This document shows positions 1 to 60,079 of a DNA stretch of 64,000 nt, piece by piece. The DNA lies in the NCBI GenBank assembly GCA_030264375.1, contig JASCQW010000122.1, forward strand, positions 28,029,264-28,093,263, read 5' to 3'. Within the stretch, counting starts at the first letter, position 1, and the number at the start of each line of letters is the position of its first letter. Below the pieces are notes generated by a model, which was given only the letters and a program-made list of their open reading frames with translations, ran no database searches and was not told the origin of the DNA. The position numbers and the translations under genes were made by a program. The DNA comes from Carcharhinus longimanus. Taxonomy: Eukaryota.

Positions 1-372
1 AGCTAACTCCTACCATTCCGGGCAACATCCTGGTTAGTCTTTTTTGTACCCTCTCCAAAGCCTCTGAATCCTTCTAGTAGTGTGGTGACCAGAATTGAAC
101 ACTATATTCCAAGTGCGGCCTAACTAAGGTTCTATCAAGCTGCAACATGATTGCCATTTTTTAAACTCAATGCCCTGGCCAATGAAGGCAAGCATGCCAC
201 ATGCCTTCTTGACTACCTTCTCCACTACCTTCTCCACCTGCATTGCCACTTTCAATGACCTGTGTACCTGTATACCTAGATCCATCTGCCTGTCAATATT
301 CTTAAGGATTCTGCCATTTACTATATATTTCCTATCTGTATTAGACCTTCCAAAATGTATTACCTCATGTAA
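1..372 (-). mobile_element. CR1 LINE fragment (RT C-terminal region)
   Basis: Reverse complement resembles the typical CR1 ORF2 end (e.g. ...ccctctccaaag..., gaccagaattgaacactatattccaagtgcggcc); recognised by eye. Confidence 0.8.
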
Positions 373-1776
373 CTAAGGACAATCTCATCTAAGATCCACA
401 ACAATGATAGCAGATAGCTCACACTCAATTGTAAACTGATAAACATGAGCCGTTGTCTCAACGCAGGCCCTTTGGCCAGAATGAGTCCCATTCATTCTGA
501 AAAAGCAGAACATGTTGTTTCCAATTTTGACACCTCTACTGACCTATTTTTCAGTGGGAATAAGGCTATAGTGTGATCAGAGTTACTCCTCTGATCTTAG
601 CTCCTCTTCCCACTGTGTTGGCCTGGTGGGATAACCACAAGACCTTCACAGTGTAGGCCTCCTGTAAAGTCATGGTCAAGTCCTGATGACATAATTAGGG
701 CCTGATTTGCATATTAGGAAATGGCTTCCAGTGGGTGTTGCGCCTGGCTGCTGAGGAAAGCAGATTAAAATTAGAACCTGTGGAAGATAGTGGCATTTGT
801 GAAACCTGAGAGCAATTTTAGCTGCCAACTGACTGGTGCATGCTCAGCATGCAAAAGCAAACTAAAATCATTCCAGAGAAAAAAAATTAGCATTTTTGAT
901 TGTTATACTGAAAGCCTGTTTTAATTTTAAGTGGATTAATCGTTCTAGTGTAGAGGGAAGTCAGCCTAGTTTAACTGCTCTTTCCTGGTCCTTTACAGTC
1001 TAGATTGAAATTTCCAACTGGTTGTAATATTTTCCCTTGCTGTGCGGTTTGTAATGTTGATGAGTTGCTTCTGGATATCTGTTATTTTCATTCCTTCTTG
1101 GTTAATTAGAGTCATACCTTATTATTCAGAAGCTGGAAATTGTGCCATATTTTCCAGCTGAGGACAGTTTAGTTGGCATAATGGAGTTCCAGCTACTGTA
1201 GGAATGCAAAGAATCATTGAGATGAAGAGAGAGAGCATTTCACAGCCCCACGTTTTTATGTAGGATATTGCCTCATAATTCTTTCCAAATCATACAATAA
1301 GCAAGTTACCAAATCTTTGTCATTTATCTTAATGTTTTTATTGAGAGTACATTTGGAAATCCAGGAACAATTTTTTGGGGTATAGTTCCTTTATTTGTTA
1401 GAGCTAGTGCATGCACTATGTGAGTACAGCACTTAGTGAGCGTTAATATATAGTGCTTTAATGCAATATTGCTAGTGGTTTGATTGCTCATACCTGTTTC
1501 TTCAATTGCAGTGACACAGACATCAACAATTGTTTCCCATGTCTGTGCACATATTTAGCATTAACAGGTTTTTAGCTTGTTAATGAGCAAAAATGGAGAA
1601 AGTAAGGCTTAATTATTTGGAAGTAATTTCATTTACTTATCACATTAATATAATTTTCAACTGAGGATGTTAAAGGACTGGATAGAGCCAAAAAATGTTT
1701 GCGGGTTGAGGGAAAATAAGAAATAACAGACCAGAATGGGGAAGATGTACAATGCAAATAACTTCAATATCACATT

Positions 1777-2225
1777 GAGACTAATAGCACAGCTCTGACA
1801 AAGGATCATTCAGACTTGAAACATTGACTATATTCTCCCTCCACAAATGCTGCCTGACCTACTGAGATTTTCCAGTATTTTCTGTTTTTTGTTTCAGATT
1901 CCAGCATCTGCAGTTTTTTGCCTTTATCTAATAGCACAGTGGTTGCATTACTGGACTGCTAATCCAGAGGTTTAGATGAATGGTCTGGAGACATGAATTC
2001 AAATCCTGCCATGGAAAATTTAAATGCTAGCTAAATAAATATGAAATAAAAGCTAGGATCTGTATTGATGATCATAACTCCTGGATTGTTGTAACAGCCT
2101 CACTAATTTCGTTTTATCAAGGATATCTATCATCCTTAAGTCCACCCTATGTGTAACTCAGGACCCACAGCAATGTGGTTGCCTATTAACTACCCTCTGA
2201 AATAACCTAAACAAGCCATTCAATT
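1777..2225 (+). mobile_element. tRNA-derived head (same as SINE family B), apparently forming the 5' end of the downstream LINE
   Basis: A-box-like tagcacagtgg (1932-1942) and B-box-like gaattcaaatcc. Colinear with SINE copies at 12965 and 13432 up to caagccattca, but lacks their tail. Confidence 0.7.
1793..1927 (+). mobile_element. Short Penelope-derived terminal-repeat unit with decayed hammerhead motif, flanked by 12-bp TSD
   Basis: CTAATAGCACAG occurs at both 1781-1792 and 1928-1939. The body (ctctgacaaaggatcattcagacttgaaacatt...ccacaaatgctgcctgacctactgagattttccag...) recurs at ~4935-5038, 20725-20960, 51270-51345, 53714-53845 and 58855-58955. Confidence 0.75.
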
Positions 2226-2279
2226 GCACTAAAGTGTAATAAGAACAGATCCGAACAAATGACCTAGGCATTGGATTTG

Positions 2280-4830
2280 AAAGCTCTTCTCAGTAACACT
2301 GTGGATTTGTGCCAAAATTGAGGGAACAGCACAGCCTAACATGATCTTACATCTCAGTCAATGTCTCTGACTTATCAATTGCAATCTCTTGTGATACATC
2401 CAGAGGTGTTACACAGTTAGGAGTAAGAGGTCTCAATATTGAATCTGGACACCATGAAGTCTCATGGCATCAAGTCAAACTTAAGGAAGGAAACCTCCTG
2501 TTATTGTCACCTACTGTCCTCTCAGTTCATGAATAAGTACTCCATGTTGAACACCACCTGGAGACATAAGGGAACAGAATGTACTCTGGGTGGGAGACTT
2601 CATTATCTATCATCAAGAATGGTTCAGCAGAACCACTACTGGCTGAGCCCTGAAAAACCTACCAGTCTGGCAGATGTGCATCAATTGTTTGAGAGAATCA
2701 TTACAGAGGAAAAACATAGTTTGTCTTGTTGTCACCAATCCACCTATCTGTCACAGATTCATCTATCTATACTGGTACTGATAGAAGTCACCGTTGCATA
2801 GTCTTTGTGGAGATAAAGTCCTATCTTCATACCAAGGATGCCCTCCCCTGTACTGTGCGGTCCTACCACCATACTAAATGGAACAGATTGATTTAAAGAT
2901 CTAGTAGCTGGAAGCTAAGCATCTGTGCGGTGTTGTGCCATCAGTAGCAGCAGAGATGTATTCCACTACAACCTATAACCTCATGATCCAGCATATTTCT
3001 CACTACCGTTACTGTCAGGCAAGGGGGCTGACGCAGGTTCAATGAGAAGTGTACAAAAAGCATATCGGGAGCAGCATCAGGTGTATCTAAAATTGAGGGG
3101 TCAATATATTGAAGTTGAAATGCAGGCTGCATGCCTAAGAAACAGTGGAATCAGCATTTGATGAACAGGGCTGAACAACCCCATAACCAATGAATCAGAC
3201 TAGAGCTCTGGAGTCCTGCCACAACCAGTTGTGAATGATGATGGACAATTAAACAGCTAACAAAGAAGAAGCGTTCATGAAGATCACCATTATAAATGAT
3301 GGCAGAGCCCAGCATGTTAATATGAATATAAATGACAAGGCTGAAGCATTTGCAACCATATTCAATCTGAAGTTCTGAGCGGATTATAAATCTCAGTATT
3401 CTATTGAGATTGCCACCATTACAGAAGTCAGTCTTCAGCCAATTCCATTAACTCCGTACAATGAAGAAATGGTTACTGAATACAGGAAGAGCTATAAGCC
3501 TGAAAACATCGTTGGGCTCGTTGGGCCGAAGGGCCTGTTTCCCGTGCTGTGTTATTCTTTGTTCTTTGTTCTATCTTGATTGTGATGCTGTTGATGTATG
3601 CTCCACAACTATCTGCAACTTTAGCCAAATTTTTCCAACGTACCGACAACTATGGCATCTACGTGGAAAAGTACTCAGGCTCAGCCGTTCCCCAAAAAGC
3701 AGACCAACCTAATCCACTCAATTACTGTACCATTAGAGTCCTCTCAACCATTAGCAGAGCGATAGAAGATGTTATTGACAGTGTTATGAAGCCACACTTA
3801 TCAAAACTTTGCTTTATACTCAGTTTCCACCAGTGTCATTCAGCTCCCGATCTCATTACAACTTTGGTTCAAACATAGGCAAAAGAGTTAAATTCCAGAG
3901 GTGAAGTCAGAGTGAGTGCCTTTGATTTTTTTTCAAGTTATTCTTTCATGGGATGTGGGCATCACTGGAAAGGCAGTTCTTGTCTATTCCTGCTTGCTGG
4001 GCTATTTTAGAAGACAGTTAAAATTTCACCACATTACTTTGGACTTTGAATCACAGGCCAGATCAGTTAAGGATAGCAGACTTTTTTCCATAGAGGACAT
4101 TATGGTATTTTATGACAATTGATTGTTTCATGATCACTATTATGAGATTAGTTTTTAATCAATATTTTATTAATTCAGTTTAATCCACCAAGTGCCAAAG
4201 TGGGATTTNNNNNNNNNNNNNNNNNNNNNNNNNNNNNNNNNNNNNNNNNNNNNNNNNNNNNNNNNNNNNNNNNNNNNNNNNNNNNNNNNNNNNNNNNNNN
4301 NNNNNNNNCCCCAGAGCAGTAGCATAGTGACATTACCAGCACAGTATCATCTTCTGCAGAGTTGATCTTAATTGGAATTGGGGGAAATTTATCCACTGGC
4401 TGCACAAGTGAAAGTGATTATTGTTGGAAACCAATCCTATGAACCCAGGGCATTGCTTCACAAGTGTAGGCTAGCACCTTAGACCTAATCAACTTCAGCT
4501 GCTTCATCAATAATCTTTCCTCCATCATATGGGTAGAATTGGGGATTTTCACTGTTGATTGCTCTGTATCCAGTGCCATTAGCACTTCGGCAGAAAATAA
4601 AACAGCCCGCAACTGCTTACCACAAGACCTAGACAACATTTCGATTCGGGGTGACAAATTCCAGGCAGAGAAAAGCTTACCACCTCCCCTTCGCATTGAA
4701 TGACATCATTATCATCAAATTTCCCACCATTAACATCCTGGGGAAAGAGATCACCATTGACCAGGGACTTAACTGGAGAAGCCAGAATAATACTGCGGCT
4801 ACAGAAAGTATTAGGTAGGAAATTCCAGAA
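2280..4830 (+). mobile_element. Decayed CR1-superfamily LINE ORF2 (endonuclease + RT), interrupted by a SINE and a gap
   Basis: Fragments such as YAPQLSATLAKFFQ..NYGIY, PNPLNYCTIRVLSTISRAIE and HSAPDLITTLVQ (ORF 3549-3878) are LINE RT motifs; many stops and frameshifts. The same family recurs at 53845-54880. Confidence 0.75.
3925..4208 (-). mobile_element. SINE family B copy (degraded)
   Basis: Reverse complement of the 13432-13790 family (catgggatgtgggcatcactgg..., gttaaggatagcagac, gtgggattt); runs into a gap. Confidence 0.65.
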
Positions 4831-5620: not shown

Positions 5621-6658
5621 TCAGGCTGAAGAGTAACCAAGGCAATACAAGTGATTCTCTTGATTTCGTATTGCATTGAATCTTGCAGCGAAACCAGACT
5701 GTCAGTAGGTTAGTGCACGTTTATACATGATTGGAAACTGCAATGACATTTTAATTATCCTGGATGATATAAAGTCACATATGACAAAGTTATTGATGCA
5801 CTGGAGACTTATTTCAATCTCTGCAAGAACACCAATGCAGAATGCACAAAGTTCAAAAAACATACCCAGAGATGGAAGGAAAGCATTGAATCATTTATTA
5901 ATGTTTTGTACTGACTTTGTACTGACTGTGAGTATGGTAAACTGAAAGAGGAGTTAAATTGTGACAGTATAGCTGCCACAGTAATGCATGATGCATTATC
6001 AGCTCGTTTCCAGTCCCAGGAAGATTTGATGCTGGTGAAGGCGATTCAATTAACTAGACAAGCTGAAATCAAGAGGCAGAACTGATCTGTTCTCAGAGGA
6101 GACAGCCCACAACCCAAAGTGACAGATATAGTTGAATTTATCAGACATTTAAAAGAGAAAATAGAGAGAAGGAAACACGTACAGCAGGAAAAGCAATTAA
6201 TGCAGCAGCCTCGACTAAATATTGCTGGTCTGGAAGAGACCGGAATGGATGCAGGAATTATACTTCAAAACTTGCATGTTGCATTGGTACAAGAAAATGA
6301 GGCATTTTCAGAAATATGGTGTAGGACTTAAGAGCAGAAATTGCAGTTATTTGCAGGATTGGGAAGGCTAAAAATCAATGCATCTCATAACCCTAAGCCT
6401 AGAAGTGAACCCAAAATGCTTATGTGCACCCAGAAATGTTCTATCCCCACTATTTTCAAAGGTGAAGAAAGAAATCAACTCAATGATACGACAAGGAGTC
6501 ATTTCACCTGTAGAAGAGTGAATGTGTTGGTGCTCAGGGATGGCATTGGTTCTGAATCTAAATGGTTCCATAAGAATATGTATTGATCTCACACAACTCA
6601 ATAATGCTTTGTGCAGATAAGTCCATCTGATGGTATTTATAGGTGAGAACTTAGTTCA

Positions 6659-6927
6659 GGTGGCACAGTGGTTAGCACCGCTGTCTCACAGCGCCAGAGA
6701 CCCAGGTTCGATTCCTGACTTGGGTCACTGTTTGTGTTTGAATGTTCTCCCCGTGGCTGCGTGGGTTTCCTCTGGGTGCTCTGGTTTCCTCCCACAATCT
6801 GAAAGACATGTTGGTTAGGTGCATTGGCCCAAACAAGCGCTAGACTGTGGCAACTAGGGGATTTTCACAGTAACTTCATTGCTGTGTTAATATAAGCCTT
6901 ACTCGTAACTATTAAGTAAACTTTACT
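6659..6927 (+). mobile_element. HE1-like V-SINE, tail type A
   Basis: tRNA head ggtggcacagtggttagcac...ggttcgattcc, V-domain gtgggtttcctctgggtgctctggtttcctcccac, tail attttcacagtaacttcattg. Confidence 0.9.
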
Positions 6928-12964: not shown

Positions 12965-13330
12965 GGGAAGTGGTGACATAGTGGTACTGTTACTGGATTA
13001 CTAATCCAGAGACCAGGCTTTGAATCCCACTAGGGCATATGCTGAAATTTGAACTCAGTAAGATTCTGGAATTTAAAAGATCTGATGACGACTATGAGCT
13101 CATTGTTCATTGTTGCAAACATCCATCTAGTTCATTAGTGTCTGTAAGGGGAGGAAATCTGCCATCCTTAACTGGTCTCACTTACATTTGATTCCAGAAA
13201 CACAGTAAGGTTATTGACTCCTACACGCTCTCTGGCTTGTAGCAAGCCATTCAGTTCAATGGCAATTAAGTGTGGCAATAAATGCTGGCCCAGCCAGCAG
13301 TGCTCACATCCCATGAATGAATAATGTAAA
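12965..13330 (+). mobile_element. SINE family B (tRNA head + LINE tail), older copy
   Basis: gtggtgacatagtggtactg...tgaatcccac...ggcaataaatgctggcccagccagcagtgctcacatcccatgaatgaat. Confidence 0.85.
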
Positions 13331-13431
13331 ATCAGACATACGGCCACGTAACAAGACTTAGAAAAGGTTAGTCAAAGAGCTATGTTTGAAAGGGGGAGAG
13401 AGAACTTTAGTGGAGGAACCAGAAAACCAGG

Positions 13432-13790
13432 GGAGGCAATGTCCCAGTGGTATTATCGCTAGACTATTAATCCAGAAACTCAGATAACGTTCTGGAGATC
13501 TGGGTTTGAATCCCGCCACAGCAAATGGGGAATTTGAATTCAATTTTAAAAAATCTAGAATTAAAAATCTACTGATGAACATGAAACCATTGTCGATTGT
13601 CGGAAAGACCAATCTGGTTCACTAATGTCCTTTACTGAATGAAATCTGCCATCCTTACCCAGTCTGACCTACATGTGATTCCAGAGCCACAGCAGTGGTT
13701 GAGTCTCAACTGCCCTCGAACAACTAGGAATGGGCAATAAGTGCAGGCCAGTCAGTGACGCCCATGTCCCATGAATGAATTAAAAAAAAA
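13432..13790 (+). mobile_element. SINE family B, younger full-length copy
   Basis: A box tgtcccagtgg (13440-13450), B box ggtttgaatcc (13503-13513), tail ...cccatgaatgaattaaaaaaaaa. Confidence 0.9.
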
Positions 13791-30119: not shown

Positions 30120-31490
30120 GTACTAGAGCCATACAGCTCAGGAAGAAGCCCTTCAGCCATCATTTCTGCACCTGCCATCAAACATCTATTCTAACTCCAT
30201 TTTTCACCACTTGGTCCATAGCCTTGTATGCAATGTTGCTTCAAATGCTTCTCAAATTTTGTGAACATTCCTGCCTCTGCCACCCTTTCAGATAAATAAA
30301 GATTTAGAACCAGAGTAATCATGCATTGTTCTGAGATAAATTAACGATCTAAAATACACAGCAACCCAGCTCAACCATAGCAGTAATCAGGAGAGCAGTA
30401 CAGTATTTATGTAGACCATATAAGCTCAGTTTTTGATGACCTACATTGACGAGGATTTATTGGCCATGGAATAATTTGCACAGCTATCCATTCAGATGAT
30501 ACCTGGAGAAAGGGGCTGAGCTACAATGAGACATGTAATGACATGGAATTATATTTTCTGGAGTTAAGTAGTTTAAGGGTAATTTGAAGGAACAGAATTA
30601 ATTTGATGAGGAAAATAGGAAAAAAATTCTTCCGTCTCGAAGGGGAACTCAAAACTTTGAGATGAGACCATCAGATACGTAAAAACATTGGAAGAAGATA
30701 GACAGGAAAACGGCCAGCTAGTCCATCAAGTAACCTTTAAGCAATATGCTTTTCAATGTTCCTCATTCACCAGCAGCCAAGACATCTGCTGGAAGAGGCA
30801 AAAATAACACATTTAAAATATCCCTAACATATTTGGAGAAATTCCTCTGTAACTGACAAAGCTTATTAAAAATAAGTTCCAGGAGATACAGCAATCAGGA
30901 AGTAGACTACTCAACAGCTCCTTCATCTTTTGTATGCATTGATAACTGAATCTTCCAGGAACTAATCATCTCATTTTAATCATTTATAACAAATTGTACT
31001 TAGGCATGAGCTGGCAACTTATTCCATTAATAACCCTCTGCATAAAATCCTCCTGATATTTAAACTAGTTCTTTACTTATATAACTTATAGACAAGTCTC
31101 CTCATTCTCTCCAACTTTTTTATTTCAAATTAATGTCTACATAGATGTTCTGATCCCTTCATCATAATAAATACCTCATTCCTCAACCAAAAAACCCATG
31201 AGTTTCAGGAGTAAAAGAGCCCAGCTCTCTCAGTCTATTATGCCAAAGGTTTCTAAACTAGGCATGAATCCACCAGACCATCTCTGAAATCCTTCCAGGG
31301 ATTTTATCACGTAGAGATACAAGAACTGGCTAAGAGCAGTTCAAGAAGGCAGCACAACATCACCTTTTTCAAGGGCAATCAAGGATGGGCATTAATGCTG
31401 GCCTAGCCAACAACACTCACATCCCATAAACAAATACGCAAAAAATGTATTCTAGATAAAGTCTCATGAGTATTTTGTTCAAGTTAATGC
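30120..31490. mobile_element. Cluster of old CR1 3' fragments in both orientations
   Basis: gaagaagcccttcagccatc (minus tail), gtttaagggtaatttgaagg (plus), ccagctctctcagtct (minus). Confidence 0.55.
31335..31445 (+). mobile_element. 3' end of the LINE that shares its tail with SINE family B
   Basis: ttcaagaaggcagcacaacatcacctt (FKKAAQHHL, ORF2-end-like) runs into aagggcaatcaaggatgggcattaatgctggcc...cacatcccat. Confidence 0.7.
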
Positions 31491-31672: not shown

Positions 31673-31730
31673 GAAAGCTGTTTTCCCTCATTCAATGGTG
31701 ATAATGTCGGATAGTAGGACAAAACTGCAA
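31673..31730 (+). CDS. Candidate 58-bp internal exon of an unidentified host gene (open frame KAVFPHSMVIMSDSRTKLQ)
   Basis: Acceptor tttattctctttccttcAG with an upstream ctgaa branch-like motif; donor CAA|GTAAGT; exactly one open frame; non-repetitive flanks. Protein not recognised. Confidence 0.45.
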
Positions 31731-32051
31731 GTAAGTTCCTTTCATTTGCAAAACCCTGAAGTGTTGAGGGGTAGTACTGACAATGCAATAAGTATTGTAT
31801 ATATACAAATATGTAATGGAGTAAAATAGTACATTTGGTTTCTGATTGTAAAAATTATGGTTTAGTAATGCATATATGTATCACCTAAAGGCAATTAGTT
31901 GCAGTTGTGATGTTGTTCAGCCATAGTGAAAAACAATGAGCAGACATGTTTTTTTCAAATTTTTAAGACTTTATAAACTTTTTTGGTCATNNNNNNNNNN
32001 NNNNNNNNNNNNNNNNNNNNNNNNNNNNNNNNNNNNNNNNNNNNNNNNNNN

Positions 32052-33492: not shown

Positions 33493-33788
33493 GGGTGGCA
33501 CAGTTGGTAGCACTGCTGCCTCACAGTGCCAGGGAGCAGGTTCAATTCCAGCCTTGGGTTACTGAATCTGTGTGGAGTTTGCACATTCTCCCCATATCTG
33601 TGTGGATTTCCTCCAGGTTTTCTCCACACAATGTGCTTGTGATTGGCCAGGCTAAATTGCTCATTAGTGTTAGAGGGATTAACAGGATAAATATGTTGGG
33701 TTAAGAGGATAGAGCCTGGGTGGGATTGAGGTCAGTGCAGACTCAATGGGGCAAATGGCCTCCTTCTGCACTATAGGGATTCTGTGAT
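33493..33788 (+). mobile_element. HE1 V-SINE, CR1-type tail
   Basis: Head gggtggcacagttggtagcac; tail gtgcagactcaatggggcaaatggcctccttctgcactatagggattct. Confidence 0.9.
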
Positions 33789-40239: not shown

Positions 40240-40562
40240 ACCAGCATTTGTTGCCCATCCCTAGTTGCCCTTGGAGACCAGTTGAGAGTCAACCACATTG
40301 CCGTGGTTCTGGAGTCACCTGTAGACCAGGCCAGGTAAGGATGGTAGATTTCCTTCCCTAATGGACATTAGTGAACCAGATAAGTTTTTCCAGCAATCGG
40401 CAATGGTTTCATGGTCATCAATAGATTCTTAATTCCAGATTTCTTTTTATTGAATTCAATTTCCACCATCTGCCACATGGGATTCGAATCCAGGCTCCCA
40501 AAACAATGACTGAGTTTCTGGATTAATAATCTAGCAATAATACCACTAGGCCATTGTGTCCT
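40240..40562 (-). mobile_element. SINE family B
   Basis: Reverse complement of 13432-13790, with B box ggattcgaatcc. Confidence 0.9.
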
Positions 40563-49835: not shown

Positions 49836-50398
49836 CAGTGGCAGAGTGGGTTAGCACTGCTGCCTCACAGCGCCATGGACCCGGGTTCGATTCTCGGGTC
49901 ACTGTCTGTGTCGAGTTTGCACATTCTCCCTGTGTCTGCATGGGTTTCCTCCGGGTGCCCCAGTTTCCTCCCACAGTCCGAAAGATGTGCGGGTTAGGGT
50001 GGATTGGCCGTGCTAAATTGTCTCTTACTGTCCAGAGATGTGCAGGTTAGGTGGATTGGCCACGCTAAATTGCCCCTTAGTATCCAAAGATGTGCAGGTT
50101 AGGATGGATTGGCCACGCTAAATTGCCCCTTAGTATCCAAAGATATGCAGGTTAAGGGGATTGGCCATGCTAAATTACCCCATGGTGTCCAAAGATGTGT
50201 AGGTTGGGTGGATTGGCCGTGCTAAATTACCCCATGGTGTCCAAAGATGTGTAGGTTGGGTGGATTGGCCGTGCTAAATTGCACCTCAGTGTCAGGGGCT
50301 CCTGGTGAAGGTAAATAATTATGGGGAGAGGACTTGGGTGGGATTGTGGCTGGTGCAGACTCAATGGGCTGAATGGCCTCCTTCTGCGCTGAAGGATT
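49836..50398 (+). mobile_element. HE1 V-SINE with expanded internal tandem array
   Basis: Head with B box ggttcgattc, V-domain, six ~52-bp units and a CR1-type tail. Confidence 0.9.
49978..50292 (+). repeat. Tandem array, 6 x ~52 bp (ccaaagatgtgcaggttaggtggattggccatgctaaattgccccttagtgt-like)
   Basis: Six successive ggattggcc..gctaaatt motifs counted directly. Confidence 0.95.
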
Positions 50399-53570: not shown

Positions 53571-53844
53571 ATTCCTCCCTCTTCCAGCTCTCCTTAGGTC
53601 AGATTCTAAGGTCAGCGAGGAACGCTTGATCCAGGGGGAAGACCTTTAGGAAATCAGTCAAAATTATTCAAATGGCAATTAAGTAATTATTTTATCCCAC
53701 AGTCTGTCTTGAGAGCTCTAACGAAGGGCCAAGCAAAATGTTAGCCCTATTCTCTCTCCATAGATGCTGTCAGACATGCTGTGATTTTCCAGCATTTTCT
53801 GTTTTAATTTCAGATTCCACCATCTGCAGTAATTTGTTTTTATC

Positions 53845-54880
53845 TTAATGTGGAAGATTTCTCAGTTATGTCCTGTCAGCAAAAAATACAACAAATCCAA
53901 TCTGTCCATTTGCCACCACATCAGTTCATTCTTGATTATCAGCAAAGTAATGGAAGGTGACATTGAAAATACTATGAAGTGGTACTTACACAGTAATAAT
54001 CAGTCATCGATGCTCAGTTTGAGTTTTGCCGGGGTCACTTGGCTCTTGATCTCATCACAGCTTTAGTCCAAACATTGATTTGATTTGGTGAGTGTGGCTG
54101 GCCTTGATATCAAAGCAACAATTGACTGAGTGTGGTATCAAGGAACCCCGGAAAAGTTAAGTCCATTGAAATAAAAAGGAAACATTTCCACTGGTTGGAA
54201 TCAAATCTAGCACAAAGGATGATGATTGTGGTTATTGGAGATCAATCATCCCAGCCTCAGAAAATCACTGGAGGACTTCCTCAAGGTAGTGTTTGAAAGT
54301 GGACCATCTTCAGTTGCTTCATCAATGACCACCTGTTGATCATACAGCCAGAAGTGTTGTTGACTGTGCAGACTTCAGTATCATTCACAACTCTTCAGAT
54401 ACTGAAGCTGTCTAGGTCTTTATGCAGCAAGACTTTAACAATATCTAGACTTGGGGTGGCTGGTGGCAAAGTACTATTGTCACTGAACTAGTAATCCAGA
54501 GACCCAGAGCAGAATCTGGGGATCTGGGTTCAAATCCCACCGTGGTAGATGGTGAAATTTGAATTGAATAAAAATTCTGGAATTATAAGTCTAATGGTGA
54601 CTATGAAACCACTCGCGATTGCCATTAAAACCCATCTTGTTCACTAATATCCTTTAGGGAAGGAAATCTACTGTCCTTACCTGGTCTGACCTACATGTGA
54701 CTCCAGACCCATAACTTTCAAATGCTCTGAAATGGGGGCCAGTGACACCCACATCCTGTGAATGAATAAAAAATGAGTAATATTTGTGCTACATAAGTGC
54801 CAGGCAATGACCATCTTCAAAAGCAGAGAACTCATCCATCACCTATTGGTATTCAAATGGCTTTACCGTTATTGAATTCC
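53845..54880 (+). mobile_element. RT fragment of the 2280-4830 LINE family, with a SINE B copy inserted at 54455-54773
   Basis: MWKISQLCPVSKK..KSN...ISKVMEG; ggaggacttcctcaaggtagtg (GLPQGS). Confidence 0.8.
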
Positions 54881-54883
54881 CCC

Positions 54884-55130
54884 TGTAACAAAAGAGGGTT
54901 ATTCAATGAAGTTTCAGAACACAAAGACTTTATTACTGAAACAATGAATAATGATGTGTACAAATAGGGTTTGACCGAAATAACTATGTGGCTGTCCACC
55001 ACTCCTCCAAGGCTCCCATTGCCGATCCTTCCTGACCCAGCATGCGCATCCACACACTCGATTGGCTCACAATACTTCATAGGGTCTGGCCTGACCACGT
55101 GGCCCTCGGAGGAGAAATAATTAGATAAAC
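54884..55130 (-). repeat. Possible solo LTR
   Basis: TGTAAC boundary and a minus-strand AATAAAG; no TSD seen. Confidence 0.4.
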
Positions 55131-58689: not shown

Positions 58690-58955
58690 GCCTAGAAGCA
58701 ATACTCCTCTTCTCTCCGACAGGATTTTCATTTGCCTCTTTCACCATGTTCACCTTTATTGCTTCTATTTCCCTGTTGCTTTTTACCTATTTTGGTCCAC
58801 CTGCTCCACCCCTTCTCAAACAATATAAAATCTATCATATTCCCCCCTCTCTTTAGCTCTGAAGGAGAGTTATACAGATTCAAAACGTTTACTCCGCTTC
58901 TCTCTCCACAGATGCTGCCAAACCTGCTAAGCTTTTCCAGCATTTTCTCTTTTTA
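58690..58955 (+). mobile_element. Penelope-derived 3' / terminal-repeat unit
   Basis: agctctgaaggagagttatacagattcaaaacgtttactc..tctctccacagatgctgccaaacctgct; homologous to 1793-1927. Confidence 0.75.
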
Positions 58956-60079
58956 TTGTCTTTGTAATTGAGCTTTTATAGCCCGCAGATGAGGATTGGT
59001 CTGAAAATGTTCCTGATACATGGCAAATGTAAGTTTACTGACCATGAGAAAAAAAGTAGATAAAGCTGCACAATGGACCCAAGGATCACAATACACAGTT
59101 AACCCCTGCAAACTTCACAGAAATCCTTGGTAGATCTATCAGAAAGCCTAATATCATAATCCAGGAGTAGAAAGGAAGGAGAGTCCACTTCCAATTTGGC
59201 ACAAGGCTTTGTGGCACCCAACCTTTCCATCGTGAAAAAGATGGCCAATTACATGAATGTTTGCACGGATCTGATCATGATGCAGCACCTGATGGCCAAT
59301 GTGTTTCACTTTCCACTGCAGCACAAGCAGAAGCAACTAACATCTGAGTGCTGCAGTACAAAATCTGTGTGAGGTCACAAAAATCTCAACTTAGTACCAT
59401 ACAGACTCAGATGGCTGACACCTTGGCTACAAATATCATAGGTCATGCGGGCTTCCACAATAGTCTATAAATCTGTGCCCCAGCAGATTACTAAGATTGT
59501 TGAGATGCCACTCAGAAGGAGCTTTGAGGAGCATGAATCTGCTCTTCTCTCTCAGGATAGAAGCATTCATGTTTCCACCACTGCCACTCTACCCATGGCC
59601 TTGCTTTAGTCTGATAGCCAAACATTCCAGGCAGCCATCAGTGCCTTAATGGTGCAGTCCTTAGCTGGACTTTTTAGGCCTAAAGCTGCTTGAGGACATT
59701 TTGTAAGGCCATTTGCAAAGTCTCCCAGTAAAAGACCGTGGTTCCCCTGCCATGCTGCATCCACTGACATAACACTGAAGGGGTATTGGGACAGCCAAAG
59801 ACATCTGTCAGACAGGCATTTAGGAAATACACAAGGATGAATGGTTGAATACTCTGTGGAATATTGGACAGTTTGTTAGATAAAGTTAATTTCAAATTTT
59901 TATTTTGTTGTGGCTTTTATTTCAACATTATAGTAAAAAGGCACTGTGATGCTCTGCAGTAAAGGGATGGTAAGCTGTGTGTTGTACAATGGTGATTTGG
60001 GCTTATTTTTAGTGGAACTGTAATCATATGGCAATCATAGACAGCCCTACCAGAAAGGGGATGTGCTGGTTTCTAAAAT

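Follow-up and report, generated by a model that had tools for sequence, protein, structure and literature searches.

A CR1-Zenon LINE with a tRNA-derived head in Carcharhinus longimanus, its likely transcription by RNA polymerase III and its likely internal-deletion derivative, SINE B

A 64,000-nucleotide stretch of the 2.68-Gb genome of Carcharhinus longimanus, here called the window, contains at positions 1777 to ~4810 a sequence that begins like a tRNA-derived SINE and continues as a LINE. The locus raises the question of whether two unrelated repeats lie side by side or whether the LINE carries a tRNA-derived head of its own and, if so, which polymerase transcribes it and how it relates to SINE B, the short element with the same head. 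We find that the sequence is the degenerate remnant, truncated at its 3' end, of one among many copies of a ~3.3-kb LINE with a single ORF for an endonuclease and a reverse transcriptase (RT). Our main reading, to which we assign a probability of roughly 0.65, is that the family is a CR1-Zenon unit made of a tRNA head, an endonuclease-RT frame and an A-tailed 3' end, that RNA polymerase III (Pol III) likely transcribes it, and that SINE B is likely its internal-deletion derivative.

The head occupies 1777-2225 on the forward strand and, according to alignments and a comparison with tRNAs, consists of a tRNA-derived part and a conserved 5' body (consensus 1-317), which it has in common with SINE B. 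A first-pass annotation of the window had recognized a Pol III-type head here. Its start at 1777 and its A box hold good, but a 135-bp foreign insert at 1793-1927 had been overlooked. This later insertion, to which no strand is assigned, is evident from the sequence and the consensus alignment; it interrupts the head within its first bases, is flanked by a 12-bp target duplication (1781-1792 and 1928-1939) and belongs to a separate, putatively Penelope-like repeat family. The same repeat also resembles 53741-53809, 58889-58957 and positions 644-877 of locus L011, where the family is arranged as a head-to-head palindrome. Downstream of the insertion, 1928-2226 aligns to family consensus 10-318 (65% identity, E 1e-29) and to four SINE B copies of the window, bearing out the earlier observation that head and SINE are colinear. 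The A box lies at 1932-1942 (forward strand), with 75-95% conservation per column in the family, and the B box, decayed in this copy, at 1996-2006 (forward strand), with 60-100% per column across 25 copies. A default self-BLAST of the window overlooked the head at 1777-2225, which was recovered by profile and consensus alignments.

An A-rich linker, a broken APE endonuclease and the first part of the RT follow at 2226-3925 (forward strand; consensus ~318-2140), identified from relics and from Pfam matches on sister copies. The endonuclease relics begin ~60 bp past 2225, RT relics come after them, and the frames are broken. The spacer of ~70 bp previously reported between head and endonuclease describes this copy correctly, but deletions have shortened it, and the consensus has ~110 nt. 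Consensus 660-2690 could be placed on 2432-4803. Within this part, 3514-3572 (forward strand) is a short insert from another repeat, presumably a CR1-type tail; it is absent from the consensus and has 84-97% matches at many loci on either strand. An inverted SINE B-like copy (reverse strand, 3935-4350, ends approximate and set by eye; consensus 194-308 corresponds to 4102-3992) sits inside the RT relic and extends across an assembly gap of Ns at 4210-4308, which therefore falls within the LINE copy. The remaining RT relic, placed by consensus alignment at 4360-4810 (forward strand; consensus ~2330-2690), is where the copy stops; it has no ORF end or tail of its own, the final ~600 nt of the element being absent.

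Consensus alignment identifies two further pieces of the family on the forward strand of the window: a 5'-truncated 3' end with ORF end, stop, 3' UTR and short A tail at 31320-31445, and an RT fragment at 53847-54890 (consensus 1862-2628) with a SINE B head inside it at 54453-54711. The window may lie within introns of a host gene. A short exon-like stretch is present at 31674-31735, with a pyrimidine tract and AG on one side and a GTAAGT donor on the other. By eye, 5880-6460 resembles the decayed remains of a gag-like region from an LTR retrotransposon.

Whether the head belongs to the LINE can be decided from other copies in the genome. When the head and endonuclease were used together as a query, the best 40 places included the query itself, and all 39 of the non-self matches span both parts. 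Before this, 34 loci had been chosen through endonuclease similarity only; in ten of these, one unbroken alignment links the endonuclease to the head (reaching consensus position 222 or less), and 16 reach the head under a looser chain rule. Sixteen headless loci have no common leader: their flanks gave six pairwise matches, whose distances vary, which is what 5' truncation would produce. The junction is thus multi-copy, as the first-pass annotation had supposed. A 5'-truncated LINE that happened to come to rest behind a SINE at this single locus is conceivable given the density of SINE B (five copies in 64 kb), but the junction recurs in dozens of loci and, across five species, in seven consensuses already in print, which refutes chance adjacency and leaves it next to no probability.

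We retrieved 36 of the 40 junction-bearing places, with 5.7 kb each, a set that informs on architecture and not on frequency, since it was chosen for having the junction. Twenty-two of the copies begin within 10 nt of the consensus start, and 14 run, by a script rule, from the head through to a tail of the type seen at 31335, although a large gap makes one of these, L091, uncertain. Two others of the 14, L093 and L103, give a single alignment over their whole length at 87-89%. That the tail at 31335 belongs to the same LINE had been conjectured; 31335-31445 indeed corresponds to consensus 3187-3286 (ORF end and tail) at 77%, and full-length copies finish in this tail. The expectation of one pair of target site duplications (TSDs) around such copies fared worse: among 41 copies, four reach a score of at least 7, where chance predicts 4%, and none reaches 9, although very short TSDs would escape this search because the copies are 10-15% diverged. 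Five LINE copies (L010, L046, L107, L120 and L123) have large internal deletions and keep the head together with part of the ORF or the tail; they are intermediates between LINE and SINE.

The rebuilt consensus is ~3.29 kb long and comprises a 293-nt leader, a frame at 294-3230 (979 codons) with a single internal stop at a CpG site, the terminal stop, a 3' UTR of ~55 nt with a predicted hairpin fold, and a short A tail. The tail contains AATAAA at 3242, and short A runs follow it in LINE and SINE copies alike, indicating a poly-A 3' end. Pfam PF14529 and PF00078 were found on single sister copies. The A and B boxes of the head are conserved across family copies, and the best tRNA fit is tRNA-Thr(AGT), with a z of 8.4 among 35 sampled genomic tRNAs of six isotypes only. 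An insert of 19-20 nt enlarges the variable region of the tRNA-like head, and ARAGORN folds the consensus head as a tRNA at a relaxed score only. An Rfam search of five decayed copies returned no tRNA, IRES or ribozyme and only a sub-threshold snoRNA match. The 5' body (consensus 176-317, window ~2100-2225) is, by eye, near-invariant among the published shark and ray Zenon consensuses and more constant than the tRNA part; it resembles a series of small hairpins, the last of which is flanked by the SINE junctions, and it could be a translation or packaging signal.

No canonical CR1 ORF1 of the esterase type is present upstream, where only 293 nt precede the frame. The lack of room for ORF1 had been noted correctly for this locus, but it is no surprise: judged by its sequence, the family is the elasmobranch CR1-Zenon, which is already published, and in such a family a missing ORF1 is ordinary. 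In the parts of Stuart et al. (2026; PMC13343379) available to us, Zenon is reported from elasmobranchs, coelacanth and hagfish, with ORF1 universally absent and a poly-A tail. By eye, seven shark and ray Zenon consensuses from five species in the supplement open with the LINE head in their first 400 characters; it is not visible in the first 400 characters of the hagfish and coelacanth consensuses. The words 'tRNA' and 'polymerase III' appear nowhere in the main text, nor 'tRNA' in the supplement, and the available parts do not describe the head, its partner SINE, the strand free of terminators or the missing AUG. A search of the literature outside Repbase, Dfam and subscription journals yielded no account of a Zenon with a tRNA head or with transcription by Pol III. 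As far as this literature goes, the family is known and its architecture undescribed, the head being in print as sequence yet unremarked.

The closest full-length proteins are unnamed endonuclease-RT proteins of ~960 aa (37-40%), and gene models of whale shark and horn shark reach 57-85% in the comparison with the LINE protein. In a quick tree that holds no labelled Zenon reference, the RT groups with the whale shark protein P0121 (SH-aLRT 100), apart from the canonical CR1 of the same genome. A homologue search with an endonuclease fragment returned nothing at E 1e-20. In P0134, which is annotated in horn shark as 'FERM domain-containing protein 7-like', the first 127 residues of the gene model are RT of this LINE family, which is likely an annotation artefact or an exonisation.

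If the head is used as a promoter, Pol III would have to read the entire element past any T-rich stop signals on the sense strand. The available parts of Orioli 2011 (PMC3141230) report T4, T3VT2, T2VT3, T3VT, TVT3 and the majority of T2VT2 as terminators for human Pol III, an isolated T3 being almost inactive. Our test motif was any 5-nt window in which at least four bases are T; such a window is contained in every published type of Pol III terminator, the rules themselves deriving from human extracts. The sense strand of the whole consensus has none. Within the ORF, 7.2 such windows are expected and zero observed, a value reached by 0 of 1000 synonymous shuffles; A, C and G windows show no depletion in the same test. 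The antisense strand carries 3, 6, 19, 17 and 17 occurrences of five motif types and one T3V2T3, against zero on the sense strand. An older subfamily consensus, built from other loci with no CpG restoration (2,442 positions, 92.7% identical), also has no T window. The unrestored consensus of the family has two T clusters, which we read as CpG decay; one is visibly a mix of C and T before G.

Five isolated T3 persist in the consensus sense strand, and T4 alone, at zero against 2.1 expected, is not significant under a null that keeps codon usage (P 0.09); with a first-order Markov null, T3 is depleted (P 0.007) and T4 is not (P 0.33). Phenylalanine makes up 1.84% of the protein; in 80 full-length relatives, which are not independent of one another, its lowest share is 2.13% and its average 4.37%. 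Of the 18 Phe codons, 16 are TTC. Assembled contigs from four RNA runs cover all 30 bins of the element, showing neither strand, start nor level, and are given no weight here. Together, 3.3 kb without Pol III stop signals and a tRNA head point to a protein-coding retrotransposon that is likely made by Pol III. From two independent sequence signals, the kept promoter boxes and the terminator-free strand, we infer that Pol III probably transcribes the LINE, a reading tempered by the failure to detect TSDs or an in-frame AUG ahead of the endonuclease.

The tRNA head might instead be a captured 5' UTR, with the LINE using Pol II from internal or host promoters and Pol III serving the SINE only. 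The T-poor strand would then have another cause, such as avoidance of splice acceptors or of U-rich decay signals. LINEs are held to be Pol II units in the available parts of Kojima 2018 (PMC5786205) and Kojima 2024 (PMC10886601), the AATAAA at consensus 3242 fits Pol II too, and a capped RNA would ease translation. Against this, the depletion fits the Pol III motif set and leaves isolated T3 in place, and the LINE copies keep both the A and the B box. Two control families of the same genome are also undepleted: a CR1 consensus has eight T windows against 10.8 expected and a Rex1 consensus eight against 6.0, both being short (1.2 and 0.9 kb). Ordinary scanning would, moreover, have to do without an in-frame AUG. 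We regard transcription by Pol II as unlikely.

The available parts of Kojima 2024 (PMC10886601) describe Pol III RNAs as uncapped and Pol III as thought to be weakly processive; under the Pol III reading, translation of a 3.3-kb product would thus need a special route. The first in-frame ATG lies 295 codons into the frame, beyond the endonuclease, and each in-frame codon upstream of it is ATG in at most 2 of the 36 copies. An out-of-frame ATG at consensus 349 opens a 36-codon frame that overlaps the start of the endonuclease; six of the seven shark and ray consensuses in print show this ATG. Ahead of it, the A-rich linker measures, by eye, 30, 33 or 34 nt across species, a difference in length that suggests a translation start at or after 348. 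Comparison of old and young copies over 348-460 gives three synonymous changes and four that are not, identically in both frames, so that neither frame stands out as the one under selection. We infer from these sequence features that a non-AUG start or an early frameshift may open translation of the ORF. A 2A-like motif was considered and rejected: none is visible in the consensus N-terminus, and a loose pattern occurs in 4 of 63 long relatives.

SINE B consists of consensus 1-317 (or 1-290) fused to the final ~70 nt, with no extra sequence. Junction and consensus alignments place copies at 12965-13330 (forward strand, 317-type junction, older-type head), at about 13430-13790 (forward strand, 290-type, 89% to the young LINE head) and at 40241-40554 (reverse strand, 290-type). 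Sixty-one different junctions of head and tail were recorded, 39 of them at 284-294 and 19 at 315-317, counts that do not give genome proportions because the loci were sampled by query. In 15 of the 61, exactly 317 is joined to the last three ORF codons, 13 of them with zero gap; the 290-type could be derived from the 317-type. SINE B has two features of a tRNA SINE (SINE2), namely a tRNA-derived head with A and B boxes and a tail common to a partner LINE, whereas a third, TSDs, was not detected in the search of 41 copies; at the same time it consists only of the two ends of an autonomous element, as does a bipartite non-autonomous LINE (SIDE). A comparison of the SINE B body with the conserved-domain SINE superfamilies Deu, Meta, CORE and V, limited to short exact motifs, gave no match in the literature supplements covered.

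A second abundant tRNA SINE, presumably HE1-like, lies at 6654-6726, with copies at 33493, 38409, 47936, 49837 and others. ARAGORN labels the copy at 6654 tRNA-Cys. A tandem array of about six 52-bp units at 49981-50296 comes from the body of this SINE.

SINE B had been proposed to be an internal-deletion derivative of the LINE. Exactly two LINE ends are joined, as proposed, but the direction from LINE to SINE is not proven. Three single copies retain more of both LINE ends, positions 323, 330 and 315 being fused to points farther upstream within the ORF end, and so indicate that internal deletion does occur. Young LINE heads and young SINE heads have diagnostic bases in common. Old heads as well as young ones carry the 317 junction, the junction classes by age being noisy, which calls for exchange between SINE and LINE beyond one-way deletion. 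These old and young heads are also what would be expected if SINE B came first, as a tRNA SINE with a Zenon tail behind whose body the Zenon ORF was joined through template switching, heads having been traded since. The hagfish and coelacanth Zenons, with no head visible in their first 400 characters, suggest likewise that the head was acquired, and module exchange is common among SINEs according to the available part of Luchetti 2017. Such a switch would, however, have to hit the boundary of body and tail exactly, as the LINE has no tail bases beyond 317 and the SINE has no extra ones, and the three copies that retain more of both ends show internal deletion. We therefore judge a SINE-first origin improbable and SINE B likely an internal-deletion derivative of the LINE. 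The direction from LINE to SINE, with continued exchange, is the simplest and most economical reading. The source of the head itself was probably an earlier SINE or a tRNA, and an older SINE is possible as its first donor.

In the model that we propose, Pol III would start at the first G of the head through the internal A and B boxes and would read 3.3 kb because selection has removed every T-rich stop; the transcript would end, like that of a SINE, at whichever T-run comes next in the genome. Translation would do without an in-frame AUG, from a non-AUG start or by an early shift from the conserved out-of-frame AUG 349. Target-primed reverse transcription is established for LINEs, and the LINE protein, binding the 3' hairpin, would insert copies in this way. 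Deletion of the ORF would keep promoter and tail and yield a ready-made SINE. For the full claim, an autonomous coding LINE that switched to Pol III through a tRNA promoter, purged 3.3 kb of stops at a cost in Phe, relies on uncapped, AUG-less translation and sheds SINEs, we see slightly better than even chances.

The working rule is that LINEs are transcribed by Pol II and SINEs by Pol III, which is restricted to short non-coding RNA. If the model is true, a natural 3.3-kb coding Pol III unit breaks this rule, and cap-independent, AUG-less translation of a host Pol III RNA becomes directly testable. The birth of a SINE would then take one step, loss of the ORF from a LINE already bearing a tRNA head. 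As the family is abundant across sharks and rays, these results bear on their repeat annotation.

The known systems that we compared each share part of this architecture, as described in the available parts of the respective papers. The elasmobranch CR1-Zenon consensuses (RhiTyp, CarCar, ScyCan, SquAca and HypSab; PMC13343379) are, like the window LINE, ~3.3 kb long, ORF1-less and A-tailed, and have, by eye in their first 400 characters, the same 5' head and body. In Lepidoptera, Zenon elements of 3.0-3.7 kb yield a short two-end element, Persaeus (Wang et al. 2019, PMC6740152), as here, but Persaeus has no tRNA homology or Pol III promoter, whereas the long and short shark forms both have one. 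Bov-tA, Mar-1 and AfroSINE (RTE, Vingi, Ingi, R2; Kojima 2018, PMC5786205) combine 5' and 3' parts of a LINE, like SINE B; their tRNA head was added after the deletion, whereas the shark CR1-Zenon LINE is already headed. RTE-1_DAn and related elements (PMC5786205), compared by description only, are LINEs that contain a tRNA-like stretch and so provide a precedent for a tRNA piece in a LINE, but they belong to the RTE clade. Finally, the TRIMp3 elements Cassandra, Helenus and Ajax (Kojima 2024, PMC10886601) have a small-RNA-derived Pol III promoter, as does the shark LINE; unlike the coding shark LINE, they are non-autonomous, non-coding LTR elements of 311-1263 bp.
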